Of a stretch of 64,000 nt of DNA, positions 720 to 60,456 are shown piece after piece. Source of the DNA: Gammaproteobacteria bacterium (lineage in GTDB: Bacteria; Pseudomonadota; Gammaproteobacteria; Eutrophobiales; Eutrophobiaceae); assembly GCA_947480335.1 (NCBI GenBank), contig CANKCB010000005.1:8018-72017 (forward strand), written 5' to 3'. The stretch's first letter is position 1, and each line of letters begins with the position of its first letter. Both the position numbers and the translations under genes were made by a program. Under the pieces are notes generated by a model. It made no database searches. It was not told the DNA's origin and saw only the letters and a list, made by a program, of their open reading frames with translations.

Positions 720-1184
720 TTAGTTATCTTCCTTCTTTTTATCAGGGGTCATTCCGGACGCCTTGAAAAAATTACCCTGAAGCTGTTGCCACATCTCGAT
801 ATTCTTTTTGGTCATGTTTTGCAGGGCTTCAAGCGGATTGGTTGAGATGGTCTGGTTCAGACGTTCCTGGAATTCACGTTGTTGGGCAGTGAATATATCC
901 AGGCTTTTTTCCAGATAGCTTGAGAACACATTCTGGTAGGCATTGCCGTAAAAGCGGATTAACTGGGTAAGCGATTCAGTTGATAGCAGTGGTTCGCCAT
1001 TGTGTTCCTGTTCAGAGATAATTTGTAACAGGATACTGCGGGTCAGATCTTCTTCGGTCTTGACGTCCTTGACACAGAACGCTACACCTTCAAGCACCAG
1101 CTTTTGTACATCCTCCAGCGTTATGTATTTGCTGATTTCAGTATCATACAACCGTCGATTCGGGTATTTTTTGATGATTCGCAT
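720..1184 (-). CDS. phaR: Polyhydroxyalkanoate synthesis repressor PhaR
   Basis: N-terminus MRIIKKYPNRRLYDTEISKYITLEDV is the PhaR signature; 154 aa. Confidence 0.9.
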   Translation of the reverse strand: MRIIKKYPNRRLYDTEISKYITLEDVQKLVLEGVAFCVKDVKTEEDLTRSILLQIISEQEHNGEPLLSTESLTQLIRFYGNAYQNVFSSYLEKSLDIFTAQQREFQERLNQTISTNPLEALQNMTKKNIEMWQQLQGNFFKASGMTPDKKKEDN

Positions 1185-1226
1185 ATCTAGTTCCTTAGTA
1201 GTCTTCAGGGATCACAGATTCAAAAC

Positions 1227-1949
1227 TTAATGCATGTACTGCCCACCATTAATCGCAATGTCGGTACCATTAATATAGGCCGCCTTTTCCGAACAGAGAA
1301 AATCGACCAGGCTGGCAATCTCATCTGCCTTGCCTGCGCGCGCAGCCGGTATTGTTGCCGGTACTTCCTGTTCTACCAACGGGAAATAGCCGGGTGAGAT
1401 GGTATTCACTGTAACGCCTTTGCGGGCCAGTTCCTGTGCCAGTGCCATGGTAAAACCATGTAATCCGGCTTTCGCGGCCGCATGATGGGTATGTCCGGCC
1501 TGTCCCATGCGACTGATGATAGATGAAATATTAATGATTCTGCCAAAGCCACGGTTACTCATTTTTTCAGCAAGGTTGCGGCAGACATTGAATATGGTAT
1601 CGATATGGGTAGAGAGGGAATCATCCCACTGGCTCTTATCCATCAGGTGGAAAGGTTGGGGTTCACCGACCAGTTCCGGGCTGTTGACGATTATATCGAT
1701 CTGTCCGACTGTTTCTTCTATGGTAGCCACCAGCTTGATACAGGAATCGAAATCGGTAATGTCTGCCTTGAACGCGGTCACTTCCACTCCGGATTGTTTC
1801 AGGTCATTTTGCCATTGTTCGATATTGTCAGTCTGGTAATCCGTGACGACTTTCGCGCCGGAGCTGGAAAGTTGTTTGCAGATGGCTGTGCCGACAGGTC
1901 CTGTGCCACCTAATACCAGTGCTACCTTGTTCTGCAGATTAATATTCAT
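1227..1949 (-). CDS. SDR-family reductase, second PhaB-like acetoacetyl-CoA reductase paralog; probable start at internal Met (MNINLQNKVALVLGGTG)
   Basis: Rossmann motif VALVLGGTGPVGTAI and an SDR catalytic region. The ORF-track start at 1988 overlaps phaA, so the internal ATG at 1949 is more plausible. Confidence 0.75.
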   Translation of the reverse strand: MNINLQNKVALVLGGTGPVGTAICKQLSSSGAKVVTDYQTDNIEQWQNDLKQSGVEVTAFKADITDFDSCIKLVATIEETVGQIDIIVNSPELVGEPQPFHLMDKSQWDDSLSTHIDTIFNVCRNLAEKMSNRGFGRIINISSIISRMGQAGHTHHAAAKAGLHGFTMALAQELARKGVTVNTISPGYFPLVEQEVPATIPAARAGKADEIASLVDFLCSEKAAYINGTDIAINGGQYMH

Positions 1950-1950
1950 A

Positions 1951-3129
1951 TTATCTCTCCACCGCCAGTGCCACACCCTGACCTCCACCTATACACAAGG
2001 TGGCCAGTCCTTTATGCGCACTTCGGCGTTTCATTTCAAATAATAGCGATACGAGTATTCGACAGCCGGATGCGCCAATCGGGTGTCCCAGTGAAATGGC
2101 GCCGCCATTCACATTGACCTTGTCCGTGTCCCAGCCGAGTTCCCGATTTACCGAAATGGCCTGTGCGGCAAAGGCTTCATTCGCTTCGATCAAATCCAGA
2201 TCCTGCACTGACCAGCCCGCCTTTTGCAGACAGTTGCGGGTGGCGGGTATTGGTCCCGTACCCATGATCTCTGGATTCACACCGGCACTGGCATAAGCCT
2301 TGATACTGGCAAGTGGTTCCAGGCCGAGCTTTTTGGCCATGGTTTCCGACATTAGCATGACAGCGGCTGCACCATCGTTAATCCCCGAGGCATTACCGGC
2401 GGTAACGGTACCGGCTTTATCAAAGGCCGGATTCAGTTTGGCCAGTGCTTCTGCGGTTACACCTGCACGCGGAAATTCATCCTTATCAAACTTGATCGGA
2501 TCTCCCTTGCGTTGTGGAATAAATACCGGAACGATTTCCTCGTTGAACACGCCCTTGCCTTGAGCCGCTTCAGTTTTTTGTTGGGAGCGGGCGGCAAATT
2601 CGTCCTGTTCCTTGCGACTGATATTGAATTTTTTAGCAACGTTTTCTGCTGTGATGCCCATATGGTAATCATTGAAAGCATCCCATAAGCCATCGACGAT
2701 CATCGAATCGACGAGTTTCCAGTCTCCCATACGGGTACCGTTGCGCGATTGCGGCAGTACATGCGGTGCCTGATTCATGTTTTCCTGACCACCGGCAATT
2801 ATGATGTCGGCATCACCGCAGCGGATGGCCTGACTGGCAAGATGAATGGCTTTCAATCCACTGCCACATACTTTATTGATAGTCATGCAGGGAATAGTGT
2901 CAGGCAGGCCGGCAAAAATGGCAGATTGACGGGCAGGGTTCTGACCACTACCGGCTGTTAGTACCTGACCCAGTATGACTTCATCAATGGTACTGGCATC
3001 AATACCGGTTTTTTCCAGCAGGGCTTTGATTACGGTAGCGCCCAGACGTGGAGCGCTGACAGAAGCAAGTGAACCTCCAAAGCTACCTATGGCTGTTCGA
3101 GCGGCGGCAACAATAACGACCTTATCCAT
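1951..3129 (-). CDS. phaA: Acetyl-CoA acetyltransferase (beta-ketothiolase) PhaA
   Basis: [21 protein letters not shown]... plus thiolase active-site regions ([23 protein letters not shown]-terminus). Start chosen at ATG 3129 (MDKVVIV). Confidence 0.9.
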
Positions 3130-3363
3130 TTTTTTATATCCTCTGATAAAAGTCATGAGATGCAAATAGAAAACCGAATGGATTTATGCAATATCAACAA
3201 CGTTGCAGTGCATCATATATGCTGCATAGTAACAAAATGATTAAGCGCTTGCCAGCAAAAGCAATGAAGACAAGATAGCCAGAATTAGTGGCGTAGAATT
3301 ATGAATTTAAAGGATTATTATCGAAAGGAAATAAAAGGCTGGTACTAAAGTACCAGCCAGAGT

Positions 3364-6074
<2,711 letters not shown>

Positions 6075-10491: not shown

Positions 10492-11010
10492 TTGTTACTG
10501 AGACAAACCGTGCTGGAACAGACTGACTTTTCCAATTCGAGTATTGATGCCGAGGGCTTCCGCGCCAACGTCGGTATTGTACTGGCGAATGGTGCCGGTC
10601 AGCTGTTCTGGGCGAAACGGATAGGAATGGATGCCTGGCAATTCCCTCAGGGTGGTATTCGTCCACGCGAACCATTGGAAAAGGCAATGTACCGTGAATT
10701 ACGCGAGGAAGTCGGTCTGTTACCTGAACATGTACAAATTATCGGTTGTACACGGGACTGGTTGCGTTACGAGTTACCGGAGCGGTTTATCCGTAAAAAA
10801 TCCAGACCCGTTTGTCGTGGTCAGAAACAACGCTGGTATCTGTTACGGTTACTCGGGGATGAGAAAGCCGTCAGACTGGATGTCAGCTCGACTCCGGAAT
10901 TTGACAGTTGGCGCTGGATTGATTTCTGGGAACCGGTGAACGAGGTAATCGAGTTTAAACGGGATGTTTACTCATCAGTGTTGTCTGAACTTGAGCAGTT
11001 ATTAAAATAA
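10492..11010 (+). CDS. rppH: RNA pyrophosphohydrolase RppH (Nudix); true start likely downstream of the annotated Met
   Basis: [22 protein letters not shown]...[28 protein letters not shown] matches the Nudix box and RppH N-terminal region (E. coli MIDDDGYRPNVGIV). Confidence 0.85.
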
Positions 11011-11261
11011 TACGGCCGGATCGGGTCAATCAGACCCGGTTCGGCTACATTTATAGTTGTTACCCCTCCAGCAAGCTACGTAACATCCAGGCATTTTTTC
11101 CATGAATCTGCATGTGTTGTGTCAATATGTCAGCCAGTCATCTTTATTTATTAATTCAATTTAAAAAAACCAATCGTCATGGGTAGAGCAGGGATGAGTG
11201 TCAATCATCAACGGGAAAAAATACCGGTCAGTCTGGCTGTGTCCGGTTTATAATTTTATAC

Positions 11262-11795
11262 ATGACTAGCGCACTGAAAGTTTTATTCAAGGAATTTTTC
11301 CAGATGTGTCTGTTGCAGAAGCGACCACAGGATCTGCCGGCATCGACCCCGTTGTTCTCGCTGACTTTGCTGGCTTATGCACTAATCAGTTCCGTGCTGG
11401 CCTTTCCGACCCAGCGAGGTATCGCAGCACTGATGTCCGGGATACTTGAGACGCTGCTGTTACTGGGTATAACCTGGATTTTTCTCTATTTGCGCAGCGT
11501 ACCGGAGCGGTTATTGCAAACCTGTACAGCATTGGCCGGGACCGGCTTTATGTTTAGCCTGTTTGCCCTGCCGATGTTCTACTGGGGACTGTTCCTGCCT
11601 GACGGGCCGGACACACAGGCCACCATCAGTCTGTTGGTACTGATACTGGTGATCTGGAACATTTCGGTAATGACCCACATACTTCGTAATGCCCTTTCGT
11701 CCTCCTATTTACTCGGGGTGACTGGATCGGTGGCCTATATCGCACTGATTACCTTTGTGTTACAAACAGTCTTTCCGGTAGAAGGTGGAATGTGA
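11262..11795 (+). CDS. Hypothetical polytopic inner-membrane protein
   Basis: 177 aa with about 5 predicted hydrophobic helices; no family recognised by eye; overlaps mpl start by 4 nt. Confidence 0.5.
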   Translation: MTSALKVLFKEFFQMCLLQKRPQDLPASTPLFSLTLLAYALISSVLAFPTQRGIAALMSGILETLLLLGITWIFLYLRSVPERLLQTCTALAGTGFMFSLFALPMFYWGLFLPDGPDTQATISLLVLILVIWNISVMTHILRNALSSSYLLGVTGSVAYIALITFVLQTVFPVEGGM

Positions 11796-13153
11796 AAATT
11801 CACATACTGGGTATTTGTGGCACTTTTATGGGTGGAATCGCGTTGCTGGCACGCGAGCTGGGACATGAAGTTTCCGGTTCCGATGCAAATGTTTACCCTC
11901 CAATGAGTACACAGTTGCAACAGTCCGGTATCCAGTTGCATGAAGGTTACTCTGACTTACCACTGCAGAATCAGCCTGATTTGGTCATTATCGGTAACGC
12001 TCTGTCCCGAGGTAACCCGGCCGTTGAGTATGTTTTGAATTCCGGCCTCAGGTATATCTCAGGACCACAATGGTTACTCGAATTTGTACTCGCGGGCAGA
12101 CATGTTTTTGCAGTGTCCGGTACTCATGGTAAAACCACGACTACAGCGATGCTGGCCTGGGTGCTGGATTACGCAGGCAAACAGCCGGGCTTTCTGATTG
12201 GCGGTGTAGCCGAAAATTTCGGTATTTCATCAAGATTGGGAGGCAATACCTGTTTTGTCGTCGAAGCGGATGAGTACGATACGGCATTTTTTGACAAGCG
12301 CTCCAAATTCATCCATTACCGACCTAATACGTTGATTATCAATAATATCGAGTTCGATCATGCGGATATATTCGGCAATATTGACGATATAATACGAGAA
12401 TTTCGTCGATTGATACGAGTAGTCCCTTCATCGGGGCAAATTATCTATAAACAGGGTGACGCGAATATCGCCACTGTGCTGGAATCAGCAAACTGGACCC
12501 CCGCCGTCAGTTTTGGTTCGGCCACAGCCAACTGGCACATGCGGACGAACAAGTCTGATTTTTCTGAATTTGAAGTGCTCTATCAAGGTAGCGTAGTCAG
12601 TACTGTAAAGTGGAAGCTGATTGGACAACATAACGCTGAAAATGCGCTGGCCGTTTTTGCAGCAGCATCCCAGATTGGTGTTGATCCTGTCAGGACGGCG
12701 AGCGCCTTGGCGCAGTTTAAAAGTGTGAAGCGGCGATTGGAGTTGCTTGCTAATGTCGGTGGTATCAGTGTGTATGATGATTTTGCCCATCATCCAACGG
12801 CCATACGGGTAACCTTGAGTGCTTTGCGGGCCAGTGTGGGTAAACAGCGGATTTTTGCTGTATTTGAACCACGGTCGAGCACGATGAAAATGGGCACACA
12901 TAAGGACACACTGGCGGACAGTTTGATAGAGGCAGACGTTGTAGTGGCCTTACAACCTGCTGGTATACACTGGGATTTACAACAGGCATTAAGAGCGCTG
13001 AAGCCAAAATATCGAATCTTTGCGGATGTTGACGGGATTATTGAGTATCTGTTGGCTGAATTACGTGCGGGTGATCAAGTGTTGATTATGAGCAACGGTG
13101 GATTTGGTGCGATTCATACCCGTTTGATTCAGCAGCTGGAAGCGAGACGTTAG
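11792..13153 (+). CDS. mpl: UDP-N-acetylmuramate:L-alanyl-gamma-D-glutamyl-meso-diaminopimelate ligase (murein peptide ligase)
   Basis: GTG start; MKIHILGICGTFMGGIALLARELGHEVSGSD and the Mur ligase P-loop region GTHGKTTTTAM. Confidence 0.9.
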   Translation: MKIHILGICGTFMGGIALLARELGHEVSGSDANVYPPMSTQLQQSGIQLHEGYSDLPLQNQPDLVIIGNALSRGNPAVEYVLNSGLRYISGPQWLLEFVLAGRHVFAVSGTHGKTTTTAMLAWVLDYAGKQPGFLIGGVAENFGISSRLGGNTCFVVEADEYDTAFFDKRSKFIHYRPNTLIINNIEFDHADIFGNIDDIIREFRRLIRVVPSSGQIIYKQGDANIATVLESANWTPAVSFGSATANWHMRTNKSDFSEFEVLYQGSVVSTVKWKLIGQHNAENALAVFAAASQIGVDPVRTASALAQFKSVKRRLELLANVGGISVYDDFAHHPTAIRVTLSALRASVGKQRIFAVFEPRSSTMKMGTHKDTLADSLIEADVVVALQPAGIHWDLQQALRALKPKYRIFADVDGIIEYLLAELRAGDQVLIMSNGGFGAIHTRLIQQLEARR

Positions 13154-13198: not shown

Positions 13199-13810
13199 AT
13201 GAGTCCGCAGAGGAACATAATCAGCTATTTACAAATGCATCCAGCCATTCTTTCGGCAATAGGTCTGGCCCCACTGGTAATAAAGAGTAACAGCGTGGTG
13301 TCCGGTCTGATGATTAGTCTGGGATTTACCCTCGTGCTGTTATTGAGTGCTCTGACAGTTTCGCTATTGCGTCATCTGGTTGCCCGACAGTTGCGCGTGC
13401 CATTTCTTTTGTTAACCAGCTCGGTATGGACGACCGTGCTGGATTTGTTATTGTTGACCTGGTTTTATGAATATCGTCTAGCACTCGATGTCTATATACC
13501 GCTCCTGGCAATGAATAGTCTGCTCTTGTTGGTGCTGGAAAAGGATGCGCTGACAATGTCAATGATGAACCTGTTCGTCCAGACGTTGCAGACTTCATCC
13601 GTTGTGTTATTTCTCTGTATCCTGAATGGTTTATTGCGGGAATGGCTGACAACCAACTCCGGCCGAGGCGCTCACTCGGTTTTTGTTTTGCCATTATTTA
13701 ATACCGCGGCTGGCGCTTTTATAGTGACTGGATGTTTGCTGGCAATGATTAATTATCTCAATGCGGCCAATCAGGATAGCTCCCGGACCGTAAACGACAA
13801 GGGCGAGTAG
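13199..13810 (+). CDS. RnfE/RsxE-like membrane protein (divergent, lacks the conserved cysteines), orphan
   Basis: Aligns by eye with E. coli RsxE (LGLCPLLAVTS / TLRH..EIRIPIY / GLYQSLGIFIPLIVTNC / GSLREI). Here LCP is LAP and TNC is MNS. It sits directly upstream of nth as in the rsxABCDGE-nth operon, but no other rnf/rsx genes are present. Confidence 0.6.
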   Translation: MSPQRNIISYLQMHPAILSAIGLAPLVIKSNSVVSGLMISLGFTLVLLLSALTVSLLRHLVARQLRVPFLLLTSSVWTTVLDLLLLTWFYEYRLALDVYIPLLAMNSLLLLVLEKDALTMSMMNLFVQTLQTSSVVLFLCILNGLLREWLTTNSGRGAHSVFVLPLFNTAAGAFIVTGCLLAMINYLNAANQDSSRTVNDKGE

Positions 13811-14617: not shown

Positions 14618-15040
14618 ATGATAGTCCAGGATCGAGATACAAGTAGACGGGTATTTGTTCAGGCATGGGCGAAGTCACGTACCGGTGAAATATTAACAGC
14701 ACTGGAGAAGCTGGTGCTGGCCGTGATCCTGGAACATCCTGAATATCATGTCTGGCTGGATAACAAATCAGTTTTGCAGCAGGAATTTAGCCCCGATGCG
14801 GGTGTAGATAACCCGTTTTTGCATATGGGTATGCATATTGCAGTTCGCGAACAAATCAGTACAGACCGTCCGCCCGGCACGCGCTCGTGTTATCAAATCC
14901 TGTTGGGGAAATATCAGGATGAGCATAAACTGCAGCATACGATGATGGAATGTCTGGGCCAGTGTCTGTGGCAGGCACAAACAAACCGTACCCTGCCCGA
15001 TGAAATGGCTTACCTGGAATCCCTGAGGAAACTGGTTTAA
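14618..15040 (+). CDS. DUF1841 family protein
   Basis: 140 aa; EHPEYHVWL region resembles DUF1841 proteins; the assignment is from memory and tentative. Confidence 0.5.
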   Translation: MIVQDRDTSRRVFVQAWAKSRTGEILTALEKLVLAVILEHPEYHVWLDNKSVLQQEFSPDAGVDNPFLHMGMHIAVREQISTDRPPGTRSCYQILLGKYQDEHKLQHTMMECLGQCLWQAQTNRTLPDEMAYLESLRKLV

Positions 15041-16314
15041 TGCAAAACAGCAATGTTTACAGTCTTTTCGGTAATGCTGCTGGTCATAGCCTTGATGACC
15101 AGCTTGCACTGCTTGCAGAAGTTGTGCAGTCATTTGCCTCGTCTCTGGATGTCGATGAAACTTTGCATAATGCCATTGAAAAATTTATCCAGTACCTGAG
15201 TGCTGAAGCGGCTTCCATTTTTCTATTAAGTGAGGATAAATCTGAACTGGTTTGCCGTGCCTGTGCCGGTCCAGTAGACATTACCGGACTGCGATTACCC
15301 GCCACGGCAGGTATCGTCGGAAAAACAGTGATGACCCGTTCCAGTCAGTTTGTCAGGGATGTGAGACTGGATCCGGCATTTGCACAGAATGTAGACAAGG
15401 ATACCGGCTTTGAAACACGCTCTATCCTGTGCGCACCGTTAATGGTGCAGGAAAATTGCATCGGGGCGCTGGAGTTGATTAATAAAAAGATTGATGACGG
15501 TTTGTTTGATAAGCGGGATGAGAATATCCTGGTTGCATTGGCATCGACAGCGGCGCTGGCAATTCACAATGCGCGTATGGCTAATCGCTTGATTATTCAG
15601 GAACGCATGCAAAAGGAGTTGGAACTGGCTCGCGAAATTCAGGAAGGTTTATTGCCGGCCAAACCCATGGAGGACTATCCGGTACAAGGGATGAATATTC
15701 CGGCACGGGAAGTGTCAGGCGATTTTTATGATTTTTTTACCCGTAATGACGGGTTGATTTATTTCAATCTCGCTGATGTATCCGGCAAGGGTATGAATGC
15801 CGCCCTGTTAATGGCAAAAGTCAGTAGTTTATTGCATCTGCTGGCGAGGGATGTAACTGATCCCGGATTGTTGCTGGCAAGGGTGAATGAGGAAGTTTGT
15901 GAAACGGTTTCTCACGGAATGTTCGTCACCCTGGTGTCAGGGTTTGTGGATCCGGTAACACAGACAGTCAGTTATGCCAATGCCGGGCATCAGCCACCGT
16001 TATTCCGGCACAAGGATGGGCATTTTGAGGAAATTGAGGCGATGGCACCGCCAGTAGGAATTATGTCTGGCACCGAATTTCCGGTGACGACACTGTCACT
16101 ACAAGGTGGCAGTCTATATCTGTTTACCGATGGCGTTACCGAAAGCGCAGACACCAATGGCGACGAAGTTGGTGTCGAGGGTCTCAAACGACTGATTGTG
16201 ACCAATCAGTCGTTAAATGGTCTGTCCAGATTGGAAGCCATAGTCGGCAAAATTCGCAATCCACTTGTCAGTCAGCATGATGATATAACGATAGTGATGA
16301 TCGAATGCAAATAG
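15040..16314 (+). CDS. GAF-domain sensor fused to PP2C/SpoIIE-type serine phosphatase (RsbU-like partner-switching phosphatase)
   Basis: N-terminal GAF (residues ~20-190), C-terminal PP2C_SIG motifs (AREVSGDFYDF, ADVSGKGMNAALLMA, DGVTE); start overlaps the DUF1841 stop. Confidence 0.85.
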   Translation: MQNSNVYSLFGNAAGHSLDDQLALLAEVVQSFASSLDVDETLHNAIEKFIQYLSAEAASIFLLSEDKSELVCRACAGPVDITGLRLPATAGIVGKTVMTRSSQFVRDVRLDPAFAQNVDKDTGFETRSILCAPLMVQENCIGALELINKKIDDGLFDKRDENILVALASTAALAIHNARMANRLIIQERMQKELELAREIQEGLLPAKPMEDYPVQGMNIPAREVSGDFYDFFTRNDGLIYFNLADVSGKGMNAALLMAKVSSLLHLLARDVTDPGLLLARVNEEVCETVSHGMFVTLVSGFVDPVTQTVSYANAGHQPPLFRHKDGHFEEIEAMAPPVGIMSGTEFPVTTLSLQGGSLYLFTDGVTESADTNGDEVGVEGLKRLIVTNQSLNGLSRLEAIVGKIRNPLVSQHDDITIVMIECK

Positions 16315-16733
16315 ACCAGCATACAGAACTGCTTTTCAGACTGAATTTACCGGCAAGACCAGAACGTCTTGCTCTGGTCAGGGCTGTTACACTACGTATG
16401 GCAGAGCAGGTTGGTTGCAGCACTGAAACCGCGCAAAAACTGGTAATTGCCATAAATGAAGTCTGTATGAATATTATCCAGCATGCCTATCAGGGTGATG
16501 TAAATGGCCTGTATGTGATGGAAGTAAAACGGAATGCACAGGCACTCTATTTTCGTTTTGAGGATTCTGCGCACCCTGTTGATTTGGACAAGGTGAAGCC
16601 CAGAGAATTGGAGGATATACGTCCGGGTGGACTGGGGGTGTATTTTATCCGTGAAATCATGGACAGTTTCGAGATGGGGCACCTGCAAGGTGGTAAGGGG
16701 AATTATCTCGAAATGATGAAAAATATTGAGTAA
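16305..16733 (+). CDS. Anti-sigma regulatory factor / serine-protein kinase (RsbW/SpoIIAB-like HATPase_c_2)
   Basis: 142 aa; N-box INEVCMNIIQHAY and G-box RPGGLGVYFIREIMD; overlaps the phosphatase gene by 10 nt. Confidence 0.8.
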   Translation: MQIDQHTELLFRLNLPARPERLALVRAVTLRMAEQVGCSTETAQKLVIAINEVCMNIIQHAYQGDVNGLYVMEVKRNAQALYFRFEDSAHPVDLDKVKPRELEDIRPGGLGVYFIREIMDSFEMGHLQGGKGNYLEMMKNIE

Positions 16734-16792
16734 GCTGTTCATTGTGGTAAGGCCGATGTTATCCCTGAAAAATAGAATAACAGGAAACAGGT

Positions 16793-17125
16793 ATGAAATA
16801 TAACGTGAGAGAGGAAGCCGGGTATACCGTTGTAGAGTTGGCCGGGGACGTGGATTTATCGTGTTCACCTGATGCAAGGAAGCAGATTTTGCAATGTCTC
16901 GATGGCAAGAATAACCTTTTGGTTGATCTTGCCAGTGTCAGTTATATCGATAGTTCGGGGGTGGCCAGTCTGGTTGAAGGTTTTCAGACAGCGAAAAAGA
17001 AAAACCTGAAATTCGGGCTGATAGGTGTCAGCGCAGCAGCGATGAGTGTGTTGCAACTGGCCCGCCTCGACAAGGTATTTCCGATACATGCAACTATTGC
17101 CGATCGTATCCAGGCTGACAATTAA
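16793..17125 (+). CDS. STAS-domain anti-sigma factor antagonist (RsbV/SpoIIAA-like)
   Basis: 110 aa; the conserved phosphorylatable serine sits in the context VSYIDSSGVASLVE. Confidence 0.85.
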   Translation: MKYNVREEAGYTVVELAGDVDLSCSPDARKQILQCLDGKNNLLVDLASVSYIDSSGVASLVEGFQTAKKKNLKFGLIGVSAAAMSVLQLARLDKVFPIHATIADRIQADN

Positions 17126-17150: not shown

Positions 17151-17177
17151 AAAAAACCGCCTTTCGGCGGTTTTTTT
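17151..17177. terminator. Bidirectional Rho-independent terminator between convergent operons
   Basis: AAAAAACCGCC-TTTC-GGCGGTTTTTTT: a GC stem flanked by an A-tract and a T-tract, usable on both strands. Confidence 0.85.
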
Positions 17178-17203: not shown

Positions 17204-17977
17204 TTAGCGAGCCAAAGTAAACTCCATCTTGATACCGGCCAATTCAATCATATCACTGTCCTTTAACTGATAGGCTTTGGCGCCAATCGGCTCTCCGTTA
17301 ACGGTTGGATAGCGCTTTCCATCACCATCGCTTTCGATGTGTGTCAGGAAATAGCCCTGTGGACGGCGTGAAATAACCGCTACCTGGGTACCTGGTTTGC
17401 CTAGCGTGATTAAGGCCTTGGTCAATTCCAGTTCTTTACCGGCAATTGGTCCGTTTAATACAGTTAATCGGCCCAAAGGCATTCCAATGGGAGCCGCCGC
17501 TATAGCAGCGGCAGGCGCTGCCTTTGCCATACCTCCAGCAACAGGTGGTGGGGCCATTGCTGGTCTGATTGGGGCTGACGCTGCCGCACCGGCAGCTTCA
17601 GCTGCTTTTGCCGCAGCAACAGCTGCACTGGCTGAACCCGGTTTGATGATCATAGTTTTTTCAAACTCATCATCATCATTGGTGGCGAGTTCATTCAGGT
17701 ATTTCAGTTCATGTTTGCCGATGGCAACTACATCGCCATCCTTAAGAGCATGTTTTTTAATCAGTTTGCCGTTAACGTAGGTGCCATTGGTGCTGCCGAG
17801 ATCTTCCAGGAAAGAATCGTCAAGGATGGTAATGATCAGTGCATGCTTGCCGCTGACAGCAAGATTATCAATCGGAATTTCATTTTCCGGTTTGCGTCCT
17901 ATAGTAATACGTTCTTGATTCAGTTCGTATTCACCCTGAACGACACCATGGTTATGTCCCAATTTCCCTGACATCAA
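17204..17977 (-). CDS. Double FHA-domain protein with Ala/Pro-rich low-complexity linker
   Basis: The N-terminal FHA (ITIGRKPENEIPID...GSTNGTYVNG) and C-terminal FHA (ITLGKPGTQ...TVNGEPI) are separated by AAVAAAKAAEAAGAAASAPIRPAMAPPP. Confidence 0.8.
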   Translation of the reverse strand: MMSGKLGHNHGVVQGEYELNQERITIGRKPENEIPIDNLAVSGKHALIITILDDSFLEDLGSTNGTYVNGKLIKKHALKDGDVVAIGKHELKYLNELATNDDDEFEKTMIIKPGSASAAVAAAKAAEAAGAAASAPIRPAMAPPPVAGGMAKAAPAAAIAAAPIGMPLGRLTVLNGPIAGKELELTKALITLGKPGTQVAVISRRPQGYFLTHIESDGDGKRYPTVNGEPIGAKAYQLKDSDMIELAGIKMEFTLAR

Positions 17978-18801
17978 AAGATGCTATTTTTTAGTTTTTG
18001 TATCAGATTTTCACTGGTCACCGAAAAGTCACCGAGAATTCTGATCAGTACGACAGAAATATTGTCCTTGCCACCTTTTTGGTTTGCCAATCGTACTAAC
18101 TCATTGGCAGCTTGTCCAAGATTAGCACTATATTTACTTAGGGTTAAGTGAATTTCTTCATCATCTACCATATCATTTAATCCATCCGAGCACAGCATGT
18201 AAATATCACCCGGATACACCGTTTCATCCGCCACATCAACTATCACCTCGGGTTCGATACCGACTGCCCGGGTTACCAGATTTTTAGGTGTATTTTTAAG
18301 AACTTCTTCCCGGGTATAAATACCACGGTCTATAAGCTCTTGAATTAACGAATGATCTTTGGTTACCTGACTAAACACATTCTGGCGAATCCGATATAGT
18401 CGTGAATCACCGACATGGGCGATTGTCGCAATATTATTATGAAAAAGCACCACTACCAGCGTGGTTCCCATGCCCTGACATTGAGGATCGGTTTGTGCGG
18501 CTTTGTAAATCTCTGAATTGACATGAATTACCGCATTTTTTACGGCAATTGCTTCGGGACTCAGCTGGGCGTCGCTAGCTGTTGGTTGTTGTATGGGTTT
18601 GGCCAAGCCCTCCAGAATCTTTTTATGGGTAGTGGTTACGGCAATAGCACTGGCCACTTCGCCAGCCTTATATCCCCCCATGCCATCAGCCAGTATTACT
18701 ACGCCATTTGTGAGATCACATAATGTGCTGTCTTCATTATGAGGACGCCGTTTTCCTACATCGGAGACATTAATTATCTCGATTTTGCCAGCAAGGTACA
18801 T
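17974..18801 (-). CDS. PP2C-family Ser/Thr protein phosphatase (Stp/PrpC-like)
   Basis: VSDVGKRRPHNEDS, ILADGMGGYKAGEVAS, HVGDSRLY and GGKDNISVV motifs; the stop overlaps the FHA gene start. Confidence 0.85.
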   Translation of the reverse strand: MYLAGKIEIINVSDVGKRRPHNEDSTLCDLTNGVVILADGMGGYKAGEVASAIAVTTTHKKILEGLAKPIQQPTASDAQLSPEAIAVKNAVIHVNSEIYKAAQTDPQCQGMGTTLVVVLFHNNIATIAHVGDSRLYRIRQNVFSQVTKDHSLIQELIDRGIYTREEVLKNTPKNLVTRAVGIEPEVIVDVADETVYPGDIYMLCSDGLNDMVDDEEIHLTLSKYSANLGQAANELVRLANQKGGKDNISVVLIRILGDFSVTSENLIQKLKNSIF

Positions 18802-24677: not shown

Positions 24678-26309
24678 ATGCCGATTACTAAAATTGATTT
24701 CTCCAAGCTGCTGAAAGAAATCACCGATATAGGCATAGCCTTGTCCGGTGAAAAAGATCATACCCGTCTACTGGAAATGATCTTGCTGAAAGCCCAGCAG
24801 TTTACCCGGGCTGACGGAGGCAGTTTGTATATCAAAACTGACGATAACAAGCTCAAGTTTGAAATCATCCTGAATGAATCACTGGGTATCCACATGGGCG
24901 GTACCAGTGGCAAGCCTATCGATTTTTACCCTGTGTCACTCTACGATGCAGAAGGCAAGCCGAATACCAATATGGTGGCGGCATGGGCCGCTGTCAGCCG
25001 TCGCACCATCAATATCGAGGATGCCTATACCAACAAGGAATTCGATTTTTCAGGGACCCGCAGTTTTGATCAGAAAACCGGATATCGCTCCCGTTCCTTT
25101 CTGACGGTGCCGATGACGAATCATGAAAATGAACTGATTGGTGTCTTGCAGTTACTGAACGCAATTGATGGTGAAACCGGTCAGGTCACCAGTTTTGATG
25201 AACTGGATCAGCAGTTGGTTGAGTCGCTGGCGTCACAGGCGGCGGTGACGATTACCAATCGCAATCTGATTGATGCCCAGAAAAAGCTGTTTGATGCCTT
25301 TATCCAGCTGATTGCCGGAGCCATCGACGAGAAATCACCCTATACAGGCGGACATTGTCGCCGGGTACCGGTTATCACTACCATGCTGGCCAATGCGGCC
25401 AGCAGTATTGAAATTGGCCCATTAAGGAATTTCAGTATGACCGAAGAGCAGAAGTATGAGCTTGAGGTAGCGGCCTGGTTGCATGATTGCGGCAAGATAA
25501 CGACACCTGAGTATGTGGTGGACAAGGGGACCAAACTGGAGACGATTTTTGATCGTATCCATCTGATTGATACCCGCTTTGAAATTGTACGGCGTGATGC
25601 CATCATCCGGGCGATACGCAATAAACTGCAACTGGACGGCATCCATCTCGAAACAGCGCTTGAACAGGATGAACAACTACAACAAGAGCTGGCTCAAATC
25701 GAGGCTGATCGGGAACATGTGCGTAAGTGCAATATCGGTGGTGAACAAATATCCGCTGAGCATATAGACAGAATCAATCTAATCGCTGGCAGGACCTGGC
25801 AGCATACTTCAGGCAAAAACGAGAAACTGTTGCAGGATGAGGAAGTGCATAATCTGCAGATTGGTCGTGGCACACTCACTGTGCGCGAACGGGAAATTAT
25901 CAACAATCATGTCAGCGTCACCATCAAGATGCTTGAATCCCTGCCTTATCCCAAACATCTGCAACGCGTGCCGGAGTACGCCGGTGGACACCATGAGCGT
26001 ATGGACGGTACCGGATACCCGCATGGTCTGACCAAGGAAGAGATGTCCATCCCTGCACGTATGGTCGCTATAGCAGATGTATTTGAAGCATTGACAGCAA
26101 GTGACCGACCCTACAAGAAAGCCATGGGACTGTCCCAGTCGCTGACGATACTGGGCAAGATGAAACTGGAAGGCCATGTGGATCCGGATTTGTTTGATGT
26201 GTTTATCCATAAACAGGTTTATCTCGATTACGCCAGACAATATCTGAATCCGGAACAAATCGATGTCGTCGATATCAAGTCGATACCGGGTTATCGGCCA
26301 TTAACATAG
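24678..26309 (+). CDS. GAF-domain sensor fused to HD-GYP phosphohydrolase (c-di-GMP phosphodiesterase type)
   Basis: N-terminal GAF; HD motif AAWLHDCGK; a ~130 aa insertion; then HHERMDGTGYP GYP motif. Confidence 0.8.
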   Translation: MPITKIDFSKLLKEITDIGIALSGEKDHTRLLEMILLKAQQFTRADGGSLYIKTDDNKLKFEIILNESLGIHMGGTSGKPIDFYPVSLYDAEGKPNTNMVAAWAAVSRRTINIEDAYTNKEFDFSGTRSFDQKTGYRSRSFLTVPMTNHENELIGVLQLLNAIDGETGQVTSFDELDQQLVESLASQAAVTITNRNLIDAQKKLFDAFIQLIAGAIDEKSPYTGGHCRRVPVITTMLANAASSIEIGPLRNFSMTEEQKYELEVAAWLHDCGKITTPEYVVDKGTKLETIFDRIHLIDTRFEIVRRDAIIRAIRNKLQLDGIHLETALEQDEQLQQELAQIEADREHVRKCNIGGEQISAEHIDRINLIAGRTWQHTSGKNEKLLQDEEVHNLQIGRGTLTVREREIINNHVSVTIKMLESLPYPKHLQRVPEYAGGHHERMDGTGYPHGLTKEEMSIPARMVAIADVFEALTASDRPYKKAMGLSQSLTILGKMKLEGHVDPDLFDVFIHKQVYLDYARQYLNPEQIDVVDIKSIPGYRPLT

Positions 26310-36626: not shown

Positions 36627-36846
36627 AATAAATTCAGTTTTGTGGTCAAGGTCATCGTCATACGGTATGTCAGGCAGGATACTGTTTTCTGATGTCGGCA
36701 TCCAGTCTGTGATCACCCGTGCCCGCAACCGTAGCAAATTGGCCTGACCGAATTAACGTTAGGGTACAGTCAGCAATCATGATTTAATGAGATTCTGTCC
36801 ATCGACAGTCGTCCGCTGGCACGTTTCCCAGCCACAGGAGAATGAT

Positions 36847-37347
36847 ATGTCTGTTGAAATCTATTTGAAGCTGGATGGTATTGCCGGTGGTTCACGAAAT
36901 TTTGCCTTCAAGGGCTGCACCGACATTACTTCCTGGGGTTGGGAATTGGATAGCAACCGCAACACTGCCGATCTGTCCGAAAATGACAAAACGTCATGCA
37001 GACAGATTTCTGTGGTCAAGCGTATTGGTATGGACAGTCCCGATATCATGGCGCATTACATGAAAGGTAAAATCATACCCTTTGCCAACCTGACAGCCAT
37101 TCCACTGGTGAGCAAACGCGAGGCCAGACAGAAATACCTGTCCATACATATGGAAGATGTGCTGATTAAATCGATTATGACCGGCGGCAATGCGACAGAT
37201 GAATTTTTTAATGAGACGCTGGTGTTGTTATTTAGCCGGGTGAGAACCGAGGTGACGATTAACCCGGTAGTTGGATCAGATGTAGCCACGGCTGTGGATT
37301 ACAACTTTGCCTGGGACATTGCCCATAATCGTGACTGGCCACAGTAA
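36847..37347 (+). CDS. hcp: Type VI secretion system tube protein Hcp (TssD), orphan copy
   Basis: MSVEIYLKLDGIAGGS...TDITSWGWE...IGMDSPDIMAHYMKGKIIPFANLT...YLSIHMEDVLIKSIMTGGNATDE...FAWDI follows the Hcp1 pattern block by block. AGGAG RBS 7 nt upstream of ATG 36847. Confidence 0.85.
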   Translation: MSVEIYLKLDGIAGGSRNFAFKGCTDITSWGWELDSNRNTADLSENDKTSCRQISVVKRIGMDSPDIMAHYMKGKIIPFANLTAIPLVSKREARQKYLSIHMEDVLIKSIMTGGNATDEFFNETLVLLFSRVRTEVTINPVVGSDVATAVDYNFAWDIAHNRDWPQ

Positions 37348-37466
37348 TAGTCTGCACTCTGAAACCGGCAAGGTAAATCAAGCAGCTCACTGTATGTAAA
37401 ATAACGCTAAAGTTTTTTTCAAGCTGGTCGATTATCCGTGTGTATGACCACAACTGCTAATAGTCT

Positions 37467-38513
37467 ATGTTGACAAAAGTTACGATGGAATTGTCGTCGG
37501 AATATCTCCGGCTTGCCTTGCCTTATATGTCACGATATCGCGTCCCTATCACACCGCAAAATTATGCGGTCTGGTATGAGTATGTGGCTGGTGCCAATCA
37601 GCCACTGAAAGCGGCGCTGGATACACTGGTTGAAAATGAACAATCCATTGATGAAGAGATAACAGCAAGCCTGTATCAAAAATATGTTGATCCAACTGAT
37701 TTGGGCAAGATTGAATCCGCCCAGCAGTTGCTGCATACATTGGCCGATACGCTGACGACGTCTCTGGATACAGCCAATGGTGAAGTTAGCCGTTACGAAA
37801 AATCATTAAAGGATTGCGCCACTAATTTACAGACCAATATCGATCCGGATGAATTTAAAGCGCTGGTCCAGAGTCTGGAACAAAGCACGCGACAGATGAG
37901 TTCTGGTAGTCAGCAACTTCAACAACATCTGGCAGACAGCCAGCGTGAGGCGGATCAGTTACGCAGCGAACTGGTGAAAACACGCAATGAAGCCAAAAAA
38001 GATGCAATGACGGGTCTGGCTAATCGCAAGGGGCTGGAAGAAATGGTACAGCGCTTATCAGGGGAAAACCGGCTGGGTAGCACCTGCGTGCTGATTTGTG
38101 ATATTGATAACTTCAAAAGTGTTAATGATTCCTATGGCCACCTTATTGGAGACAAGGTAATTCGTATGGTGGCTGATGTGTTGAAAAATCAAATCAAGGG
38201 CAGGGACACGCCGGCACGCTTCGGTGGTGAAGAATTTATCATCCTGCTTCCGGATACTGAACTGCGCGGTGCCCGATCAGTTGCAGAATCCATTCGTCGA
38301 GCAGTGGAAGGATGCAAGATTGTCCGACCCCGAACCGGTGAAGCAATACGTCAGGTCACGATTTCAATTGGTATAACACAGTGTCTGGTCAAGGAAGACT
38401 TCCAGGAAACTGTGTCCAGGGCAGATCAGGCATTGTATGCTGCAAAACAAGCCGGTCGTAACCGGGTTGAAGTGAATACTCCGCTGCATGAAATGAAAGT
38501 AATGGTCTGTTAG
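37467..38513 (+). CDS. Diguanylate cyclase (GGDEF) with N-terminal coiled-coil domain
   Basis: RFGGEEFIILLPDT active-site motif; the N-terminal ~170 aa are helical/coiled-coil with no TM segments. Confidence 0.85.
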   Translation: MLTKVTMELSSEYLRLALPYMSRYRVPITPQNYAVWYEYVAGANQPLKAALDTLVENEQSIDEEITASLYQKYVDPTDLGKIESAQQLLHTLADTLTTSLDTANGEVSRYEKSLKDCATNLQTNIDPDEFKALVQSLEQSTRQMSSGSQQLQQHLADSQREADQLRSELVKTRNEAKKDAMTGLANRKGLEEMVQRLSGENRLGSTCVLICDIDNFKSVNDSYGHLIGDKVIRMVADVLKNQIKGRDTPARFGGEEFIILLPDTELRGARSVAESIRRAVEGCKIVRPRTGEAIRQVTISIGITQCLVKEDFQETVSRADQALYAAKQAGRNRVEVNTPLHEMKVMVC

Positions 38514-55295: not shown

Positions 55296-56394
55296 ATGCT
55301 GGAAATTACCTCTGTCATTGCGCATATAAAGGATATCAAGGGAAGGACTGAAGCCCTGAGGAGGTATCTTTGAATACGATCTCAAATCGGAACGACTGGT
55401 AGAAGTCACTCGCGAACTGGAATTACCCAACGTCTGGGATGAACCGGAACGGGCACAGGCACTGGGCAAGGAAAGGGCCACGCTGGAAAAAATCGTCAAA
55501 ACCCTCACCGACCTGAACGCCGGTATCGAGGATGCCGAACAGCTGCTGGCAATGGCCAAAGAAGAAAACGATGCGGAAACGGTCGCTGGTGTCGATCGCG
55601 ATCTGGATCAACTGCAAAAGCATCTCGAAGATCTGGAATTTCGCCGCATGTTTTCCGGCGAGATGGACCCGAACAGCGCCTTTCTGGATATTCAGTCCGG
55701 CTCCGGTGGCACTGAAGCTCAGGATTGGGCGGAAATGTTGCTCCGCATGTACACCCGTTGGGGTGAAGCGCACGGCTTTGGCATCGAATTGGTCGAAGTC
55801 TCTCCGGGTGAGGTTGCCGGTATCAAGAGTGCGACCATCAAATATAACGGTGAGTATGCCTATGGCTGGCTGCGGACCGAAACCGGAGTGCATCGACTGG
55901 TGCGTAAATCCCCGTTTGATTCCGGTAATCGTCGTCATACCTCGTTTGCTTCAGTATTTGTGTCTCCGGAAATTGATGACGATATCAATATCGATATCAA
56001 TCCGGCCGACCTGCGTATTGATACCTATCGTGCCAGCGGTGCCGGTGGTCAGCACGTGAACAAAACCGATTCCGCCATCCGTATTACACATATCCCGAGC
56101 GGGATTGTGGTGCAATGTCAGTCGGATCGATCCCAACACAAGAATCGCGACAGCGCCCACAAGCAGTTACGTGCGAAGCTATATGAAATGGAAATGCAAA
56201 AGCGTATGGTCGCGCAGCAAAAACTGGAGGATACCAAGTCTGATATAGGCTGGGGTAGCCAGATCCGCTCGTATGTGCTCGACCAGTCGCGTATCAAGGA
56301 TTTACGCACCGGTATTGAAAACACCAATACCCAGTCGGTGCTGGACGGTAATCTCGACAAGTTTATGGAAGCGAGTTTGAAGGCGGGGTTATAG
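55296..56394 (+). CDS. prfB: Peptide chain release factor 2, with programmed +1 ribosomal frameshift at CTT TGA A (55368-55374)
   Basis: Frame-0 start [25 protein letters not shown] stops at TGA (55371-55373). The +1 frame continues [34 protein letters not shown]..., collinear with E. coli RF2. Internal SD-like AGGAGG lies 3 nt upstream of the shift site. SPF and GGQ motifs are present. Confidence 0.9.
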
Positions 56395-59816: not shown

Positions 59817-60158
59817 TTATTCTTCGTTATGTAACTTGTTAACTTCACTTAACAGAACTGGTAATTTACTTTGTAATAAATCCCAAACCAGATAATCGTC
59901 AATCTCGGCATAACCATGGATTAAAATATTCCGGAAATTAACAAGCTTGCGATAATCGGAAATATGGATGACAACTGCAGGATCAAGCTTTGCTAATTTA
60001 CTGATAGCTTCTCCAATAATTTCAAACTGTCGTTCTATGGCAGACCTGAGCAGTGGATCGTTGAGATAGTCATTTTGAGTCTTGCCGCCTGAGAAGCGGT
60101 CAAGGTAGGTGGCTGCACGCTTTATATCGAACAGATATTTCCGGACTTCAAGCTGCAT
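59817..60158 (-). CDS. hepT: HepT-like (DUF86) toxin of a type VII HepT/MntA toxin-antitoxin pair
   Basis: RxxxHxY-type motif context (FRNILIHGYAEID) at the C-terminus; overlaps the upstream nucleotidyltransferase gene. Confidence 0.75.
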   Translation of the reverse strand: MQLEVRKYLFDIKRAATYLDRFSGGKTQNDYLNDPLLRSAIERQFEIIGEAISKLAKLDPAVVIHISDYRKLVNFRNILIHGYAEIDDYLVWDLLQSKLPVLLSEVNKLHNEE

Positions 60159-60456
60159 AGAGCAATTCTCGCGACTGCTCAAGTTTTTCCAGGAAATAGG
60201 GGTTTTTTAGTGCCCGTGTGACGACGAGGTCAACCTTCCGATTGAGCAAAGACTCGAGGTCTTCATACAAACCAAAATAATGGTCTGTGTATTCACCCTG
60301 TTTCAGTTGCTCAAAATCCACGAGAAAGTCGATATCACTGTTGACATTATCGAATTTTCCACTCGCAGCAGAACCAAACAATTCCAGCCTGCTGACATGA
60401 TGCTTGCGGCAGAGGGCAACGATTTGCGGACGGAAATTATCAAGTATCTGGATCAT
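60148..60456 (-). CDS. mntA: MntA-like nucleotidyltransferase antitoxin
   Basis: GSAASGKFDNVNSDIDFLVDF is the minimal nucleotidyltransferase motif (GSxxRG...DxD); 102 aa. Confidence 0.75.
   Translation of the reverse strand: MIQILDNFRPQIVALCRKHHVSRLELFGSAASGKFDNVNSDIDFLVDFEQLKQGEYTDHYFGLYEDLESLLNRKVDLVVTRALKNPYFLEKLEQSRELLYAA

Follow-up and report, generated by a model that had tools for sequence, protein, structure and literature searches.

The DNA analysed here, referred to as the window, is a 64,000-nt stretch of contig CANKCB010000005.1 (assembly GCA_947480335.1; positions 8,018-72,017 of the forward strand), and all coordinates given below are those of the window. An earlier description made from the letters alone (the sequence-only reading) had placed it in a gammaproteobacterial setting, an affiliation that was upheld, and had drawn attention to three linked or overlapping genes at 15040-17125 that resemble a partner-switching module. 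The open reading frames (ORFs) lie at exactly these positions, all on the plus strand. The first gene (15040-16314) encodes a GAF-PP2C serine phosphatase of the SpoIIE type with 424 residues, in which the GAF domain comprises residues 37-175 (15148-15564; Pfam 4e-15) and the SpoIIE/PP2C domain residues 238-423 (15751-16308; Pfam 5e-41). It overlaps by 10 nt with the second gene (16305-16733), which encodes an RsbW-like GHKL serine kinase of 142 residues (HATPase_c_2; Pfam 3e-25). The third gene (16793-17125) codes for a single-domain STAS protein of 110 residues (Pfam STAS 2e-16), with the codon of the predicted phospho-acceptor, Ser54, at 16952-16954. Domain searches had been set beforehand as the test of the PP2C, HATPase_c_2 and STAS assignments; Pfam supported all three, and the GAF domain as well.

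The window was compared with 80 related genome loci labelled by tblastn, of which 77 were informative for the genes that follow the STAS gene. The metal-binding motifs of the PP2C domain (SGDFYD, DVSGKG, TDG and DD) are invariant in all 78 orthologues, and the N-box (E..N..H), the G1 Asp (as DxAxP) and the G2 motif (RPGGLG) of the kinase are invariant in 81 out of 81. The nearest solved structure to the kinase is that of Bacillus subtilis RsbW (PDB, 7e-17). Among the NCBIfam models, those of RsbW and SpoIIAB scored best and stayed below their equivalog cut-offs (NF003144, 59 bits vs 145; TIGR01924, 54 vs 155; TIGR01925, 35 vs 135). The possibility of a pseudo-kinase, raised by a G1 motif that reads DxAxP rather than DxGxG, was rejected, as the Asp is invariant and RsbW itself, with DEGDS at the same position, also lacks the second Gly. 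With 66 bits, the STAS protein exceeds the cut-off (53) of TIGR00377, the superfamily model for anti-sigma-factor antagonists, and its YIDSSG.A motif is conserved without exception in the 81 orthologues. This motif contains the phosphorylatable DSSG serine that the sequence-only reading had pointed out (D53-S54-S55-G56), and Ser54 presumably aligns with S58 of SpoIIAA and S56 of RsbV. Identical module proteins recur across many independent metagenome assemblies. Judged by its sequence, the trio is an RsbU/RsbW/RsbV-type module with all catalytic and phospho-acceptor motifs intact, and we infer that it works as a serine phospho-switch, including the assignment of who would phosphorylate whom.

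The sensor domain of the phosphatase most closely resembles GAF domains that bind cyclic nucleotides (cNMPs). Its best matches in the PDB were PDE2A GAF-B (1.8e-23), Anabaena CyaB2 (3e-23) and PDE5 (~1e-21), whereas the GAF domain of PtsP, which is not of the cNMP type, matched at just 7e-5. The window protein displays a complete NKFDE signature (N148-K149...F156...D160-E161), encoded at 15481-15522 on the plus strand (NKKIDDGLFDKRDE), and the N-K-F-D core of this signature is kept in nearly all of the 78 orthologues. We therefore assign the GAF domain to the cNMP-binding (PDE/CyaB) type, ligand binding being a prediction. Furthermore, 25 of the related loci have, right behind the operon and co-oriented with it, a gene for a CHASE2 class III cyclase. 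Its catalytic domain best matches adenylate cyclases and carries the adenine-type Lys (IDKYMGD) and Thr (YTVLG). Given an NKFDE-type GAF domain and an adjoining adenylate-type cyclase, a chain leading in these relatives from the CHASE2 cyclase through cyclic AMP (cAMP) to the GAF-PP2C phosphatase is therefore a reasonable inference. Elsewhere in the window, a GAF-HD-GYP (HD_5) protein is encoded at 24678-26309, adjoining htpG, a neighbour that is kept in related loci. The GAF domain of this protein bears a distant resemblance to the one in the module phosphatase (26% identity, 7e-7).

The family to which the kinase belongs is common among uncultured Gammaproteobacteria, and Rhodospirillales have it too. 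The highly conserved gammaproteobacterial gene order is Mdh, RppH, Mpl, (LonN), (RnfE-like), Nth, (DUF1841), GAF-PP2C, kinase and STAS, with FHA, Stp1, Fdx and MutS on the opposite strand 3' of the STAS gene. In 49 of the 77 informative loci, from both Gammaproteobacteria and Rhodospirillales, four co-oriented genes directly follow the STAS gene. According to Pfam, they encode an MlaE permease, an ATP-binding cassette (ABC) ATPase (MlaF), an MlaD/MCE protein of ~330 residues that carries a long helical tail, and an ABC_trans_aux (PqiC-like) lipoprotein. The STAS gene typically overlaps the next gene by 8 nt in these loci, and the gap between the two never exceeds 24 nt. The seven-gene unit is kept in the Rhodospirillales loci although every other gammaproteobacterial neighbour is missing there, which indicates that module and transporter form a conserved core rather than a case of lineage synteny. 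By its architecture, the product of the four downstream genes is a predicted Mla-Pqi chimeric ("Mpc-like") lipid transporter, and the operon of phosphatase, kinase, STAS, MlaE, MlaF, long MlaD and PqiC-like lipoprotein is, by comparison of the loci, the ancestral and commonest arrangement. An operon type that couples a switch of cNMP-type GAF-PP2C, kinase and STAS protein to an Mla-Pqi-type transporter is thus widespread in the relatives and apparently undescribed; in open-access text, we found no literature linking Mla/MCE transporters to RsbW/RsbV-type kinases or PP2C phosphatases.

In 15 of the 80 loci, the phosphatase and the kinase are fused in a single GAF-PP2C-HATPase_c_2 polypeptide (for instance at 3294-5039 of locus L053), which argues that the STAS protein, and not the kinase, carries the signal onward. 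The GAF sensor is replaced by an HDOD domain in two loci, L077 (8305-9990) and L074. A counterpart of the downstream genes has been described in Brucella abortus, where the Mpc system consists of MpcE, MpcF, a 331-residue MpcD and the PqiC-like MpcA, and where the N-terminal part of MpcE is a STAS domain with homology to MlaB, fused to MlaE (PMC12436622). The STAS-MlaE fusion in Brucella, together with the overlapping separate STAS gene in the relatives, constitutes gene-fusion evidence and therefore suggests that the two proteins work together. In Escherichia coli, T52 of MlaB occupies the position of the SpoIIAA/RsbV phospho-serine and lies at the centre of the interface with MlaF, and the phosphomimetic variant T52E has weaker MlaF binding; whether and how MlaB is phospho-regulated was posed as an open question by Kolich et al. 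2020 (PMC7367683). Following that work and what is known of the family, Ser54 of the STAS protein is taken to align with MlaB T52.

A different output would be expected if the module were a classical anti-sigma partner switch, in which the kinase sequesters a sigma-70-family factor encoded at a distance and the unphosphorylated STAS protein releases it. Such a role would fit the resemblance of the kinase to the anti-sigma factor RsbW, its nearest solved homologue, and to the RsbW and SpoIIAB models, the placement of the STAS protein above the TIGR00377 cut-off, and the fact that no other target adjoins the module in this genome. We searched all ORFs of at least 100 residues in the window and the 80 related loci (1.3 Mb) with phmmer, using four Pfam-validated sigma-70-family probes. 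No sigma-70-family gene was found within the 64-kb window by gene call, Pfam of the unassigned ORFs or phmmer, nor in ~10 kb past either window edge (~84 kb around the module in all), nor within ~10 kb of the module in the 80 related loci. A sigma factor nearby was rejected, the lone marginal phmmer match being a DUF4124 protein. Moreover, the kinase reaches 59 bits where the RsbW equivalog cut-off lies at 145, it is covalently fused to the phosphatase in the 15 loci mentioned above, and the sole functional partner genes conserved across the two classes encode the transporter. On this evidence, we regard an anti-sigma switch as improbable. The sequence-only reading had found no sigma factor target in the operon and had left the output open. 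The first part held, also for the genes adjacent to the operon; the second needs amending, in that the operon of the relatives encodes an Mla/MCE-type lipid ABC transporter, one that is absent from the operon in the window.

We propose that the RsbW-like kinase would phosphorylate Ser54 of the STAS protein, and that the GAF-PP2C phosphatase would remove this phosphate once a cyclic nucleotide, with cAMP as the likeliest one, is bound by its GAF domain. In the seven-gene operon, the STAS protein rather than the kinase would be the output. When unphosphorylated, it would behave like MlaB, binding the MlaF-type ATPase and thereby enabling an envelope-spanning Mpc-like lipid transporter, and phosphorylation of Ser54 would break the contact with MlaF. 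At the level of the family, we consider it probable that the unphosphorylated STAS protein serves the Mpc-like transporter as an MlaB-like subunit or activator, which the kinase would turn off and the cNMP-sensing phosphatase would turn on. In the genome studied here, the four transporter genes and the neighbouring CHASE2 adenylate cyclase would have been deleted, and the STAS protein would now act in trans, its likeliest partner being another MlaF-type ATPase or transporter encoded elsewhere. Action in trans is suggested by the trio still being fully conserved; that it is directed at another MlaF-type ATPase is a tentative proposal, to which we give somewhat less than an even chance. The explanation as a whole, comprising both the switch of the family and its action in trans in this genome, falls just short of an even call. 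The sequences themselves show the domain identities, the intact catalytic and phospho-acceptor residues, the layout of the operon, its linkage to the transporter in relatives, the subtype of the GAF domain and the lack of sigma factor genes in the regions searched, whereas the phosphorylation partners, the ligand, the binding of STAS to MlaF and the target in this genome are predictions.

Several observations weigh against this proposal. By sequence, the STAS protein is of the anti-sigma-antagonist type, with Thermotoga TM1442 as its nearest solved structure (4e-11). It scored 25 bits against the MlaB model NF033618, the cut-off of which is 90, and PDB chains of MlaB were matched with E values of 0.2 to 0.6; a profile search returned a weak MlaB match at 1.6e-5. 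Gene linkage is no proof of physical interaction, and the contact between STAS and MlaF is a predicted one. In addition, no homologues of MlaE, MlaF, MlaD, the PqiC-like lipoprotein or the cyclase were found in the 64-kb window or in ~10 kb beyond each of its edges. When MlaE from the nearest transporter-bearing relative was used as a query, none of the best 120 matches (at least 68% identity) lay on the 291,669-bp contig of this organism or on the 2.76-Mb contig of its sister, L011. Finally, the rate of the STAS protein relative to kinase and phosphatase is 0.98 in transporter-less loci and 0.85 in linked ones, which would fit the loss of one partner.

The window shares the lack of transporter genes after STAS with its nearest relatives (L001, L002, L004, L006, L008, L009, L011 and L014). 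In a tree built from kinase and STAS, loci without the transporter are found in at least five separate clades, whereas the linked arrangement is basal and occurs in both classes. Repeated loss of the transporter from the locus is therefore likely, as judged from the tree. Organisms with linked loci could be matched to MlaE matches in the same search, and the absence of an MlaE match on the contigs of this organism and its sister suggests that the cognate transporter was probably lost and not moved. A relocated transporter was accordingly sought in the window, in the ~10-kb extensions and among the best 120 MlaE matches and was found in none of them, a result that suggests loss and is not conclusive.

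Despite the missing transporter, the module shows no sign of decay. The catalytic and phospho-site motifs do not vary among the linked loci or among the transporter-less ones (28 to 32 of the latter), and the column-by-column conservation of the STAS protein is the same in both locus classes (Spearman 0.90). Relaxed selection on the STAS protein in transporter-less loci was considered on account of its relative rate and set aside: the shift is modest, the column pattern is unchanged and, the pairs being non-independent, no significance is claimed. As neither the motifs nor the conservation have decayed, the module is presumably still used in this genome, and the alignments indicate that it is kept under strong constraint in the clade of the window, from which the transporter and cyclase genes have been lost. 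It is hardly conceivable, then, that the module is a decaying, functionless remnant of the transporter deletion. The missing transporter and the slightly faster STAS protein in transporter-less loci would agree with such a remnant, and against it stand intact ORFs throughout, motifs that are invariant across several transporter-less clades, and identical proteins in many independent metagenome assemblies.

The same pattern of loss could also mean that the module was kept, after the transporter had gone, for a different target that is neither a sigma factor nor an Mla protein. This might be a c-di-GMP enzyme, as in HsbA/HsbD, or a different protein that binds STAS; alternatively, the kinase could have a second substrate. 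Loss of the transporter in at least five separate clades with the module intact suggests a function independent of a transporter in cis, no MlaE orthologue was detected for this organism among the best 120 matches, and STAS proteins with non-sigma outputs, such as HsbA, SypA and BtrV, are well established. On the other hand, the transporter-less loci hold no alternative conserved neighbour: FHA, Stp1, Fdx and MutS represent lineage synteny and are present at transporter-bearing loci too. The conservation patterns of the STAS protein are, moreover, nearly identical in the two classes of loci. We consider such a target rather unlikely. Returning to the transporter-based proposal in its broadest form, the family would constitute a cAMP-gated serine phospho-switch, acting via a phosphorylatable MlaB-like STAS subunit to start and stop an envelope-spanning MCE lipid transporter, and the lineage that keeps the switch would point to a second target; we advance this combined picture with reserve, at clearly less than even confidence.

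Downstream of the module, an FHA protein and a Stp1-type PP2C phosphatase are encoded convergently on the minus strand (17204-18801). The 78-bp gap between the stop codon of the STAS gene and that of the FHA gene contains a GC-rich hairpin at 17151-17176, a strong bidirectional intrinsic terminator with an 11-bp stem (AAAAAACCGCC-TTTC-GGCGGTTTTTT) and T and A runs on its flanks. Since this hairpin fills the gap, the operon ends directly 3' of the STAS gene. An Rfam scan of the window gave no match. Related loci add a CHASE2 Ser/Thr kinase of 840 residues and a CHASE2 class III adenylate cyclase of 748 residues (10865-13111 and 14995-17517 in L011). The CHASE2 kinase is absent from the window, as is the cyclase, so that the losses at this locus extend to the kinase of the FHA/Stp1 pair. 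These genes could be thought to form one signalling unit with the module, connected through cross-phosphorylation. FHA and Stp1 adjoin the module in 49 of the 80 loci and the CHASE2 kinase does so in 28, and the cyclase could feed the GAF domain. We nevertheless regard a common unit as very unlikely, because FHA and Stp1 lie on the opposite strand with the terminator between them and the module, and because none of the Rhodospirillales loci with module and transporter has them. Furthermore, FHA domains read phospho-threonine, whereas the site in the STAS protein is a serine.

Upstream, a DUF1841 gene (14618-15040, plus strand; Pfam 1e-51) overlaps the phosphatase gene by 1 nt, in line with the co-oriented, start-stop-overlapping arrangement described in the sequence-only reading. 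By virtue of this overlap, DUF1841 is probably co-transcribed with the phosphatase. DUF1841 was tried as a component of the module and rejected: in Sedimenticola thiotaurini, the nth-DUF1841 pair is present without the module, and 33 of the 80 module loci, comprising all alphaproteobacterial and several gammaproteobacterial ones, lack DUF1841. As the pair occurs without the module and the alphaproteobacterial loci do without DUF1841, this gene belongs with nth (endonuclease III), its consistent partner, and, to judge from its distribution, probably has no functional role in the module. Module and transporter were evidently inserted downstream of the nth-DUF1841 pair. The AlphaFold model of DUF1841 is confident and all-alpha (pLDDT 90); it had no significant fold match in the PDB and offered no functional clue. 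Its invariant His-rich motifs (HPEYH, HMGMH and H107) suggest metal binding.

Directly upstream of nth, a solitary membrane protein of the Rnf-Nqr family (RnfE-like, 203 residues) is encoded at 13199-13810, with no other rnf gene nearby. Its pairing with nth is kept in many related loci and is reminiscent of the tail of the E. coli rsxABCDGE-nth operon, as if all subunit genes but the last had gone. In three Rhodospirillales loci, a PhaC polyhydroxyalkanoate synthase gene stands directly upstream of the module (for example at 1358-3220 in L053 and 6744-8588 in L055). The window contains phaR-phaB-phaA at 720-3165, ~12 kb from the module, and the link to Pha may be a coincidence. Further away, prfB (release factor 2; ~55296-56394) displays its classical +1 programmed frameshift site, an ordinary known feature, with the Shine-Dalgarno-like AGGAGG followed by TAT CTT TGA A at ~55368. 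An orphan Hcp (type VI secretion) gene lies next to a GGDEF diguanylate cyclase gene at 36787-38513, and a nucleotidyltransferase/HepT-like (MNT/HEPN) pair of the toxin-antitoxin type at 59817-60456.

The post-translational control of Mla/MCE lipid transporters is an acknowledged open question. If the proposed mechanism is true, the related operons would contain a kinase and a phosphatase dedicated to the STAS subunit of a bacterial ABC transporter, the first such pair, would directly answer whether MlaB-type proteins are phospho-regulated, and would make an ABC lipid transporter one of the few non-sigma outputs recorded for partner-switching systems. The hypothesis can be tested with defined components, since these operons combine, in translational coupling with the transporter, a STAS protein whose phospho-serine is invariant, a kinase of its own and a cNMP-type sensor phosphatase. 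The copy in the window lacks the informative transporter half, which tempers its interest. As a switch kept after deletion of the transporter, it would, if the mechanism holds, point to a second target of the same switch, and it thus offers a natural experiment on additional switch targets.

The module shares with the RsbU/RsbW/RsbV and SpoIIE/SpoIIAB/SpoIIAA systems of Bacillus the combination of a PP2C phosphatase, a HATPase_c_2 kinase and a STAS protein with a D-S-x-G motif, encoded by adjacent, overlapping genes. Unlike these modules, it has no sigma gene near any of the 81 loci, its sensor is a cNMP-type GAF domain and its conserved partner genes are those of a transporter; some relatives have kinase and phosphatase in a single polypeptide, and the RsbW/SpoIIAB equivalog cut-offs are missed. 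As in HsbR/HsbA of Pseudomonas, SypE/SypA of Vibrio fischeri and BtrU/V/W of Bordetella, the STAS protein and not a sigma factor is the likely effector, and SypE and HsbR each unite a kinase and a phosphatase domain, in the manner of the fused relatives of the present module. Those systems have receiver-domain inputs and biofilm, flagellar or type III secretion outputs. In the module phosphatase, Pfam found a GAF sensor instead of an HsbR-type receiver domain, gene call and Pfam found no type III secretion genes in the window such as those of the Btr locus, and the linked output in relatives is a lipid transporter.

The STAS gene of the relatives, like that of E. coli MlaFEDB, shares an operon with homologues of MlaE, MlaF and MlaD. 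It differs in being encoded together with a dedicated kinase and phosphatase, whereas MlaB is not known to have a kinase or phosphatase; similarity to MlaB is marginal, and the transporter genes are absent from the locus in the window. With Mpc of Brucella abortus, the relatives share MlaE, MlaF, the ~330-residue MCE protein with its helical tail, the PqiC-like lipoprotein and the position of STAS immediately before MlaE. In contrast to Brucella, for which no such enzymes have been described, the STAS protein is here separate and phosphorylatable, and its own kinase and phosphatase genes precede it. The sensor, finally, resembles the GAF domains of PDE2/5/6/10 and Anabaena CyaB1/2, with best structure matches between 1e-21 and 1e-23 and a complete NKFDE signature; unlike in the PDE and CyaB proteins, its predicted ligand binding would act on a PP2C phosphatase rather than on a phosphodiesterase or cyclase.

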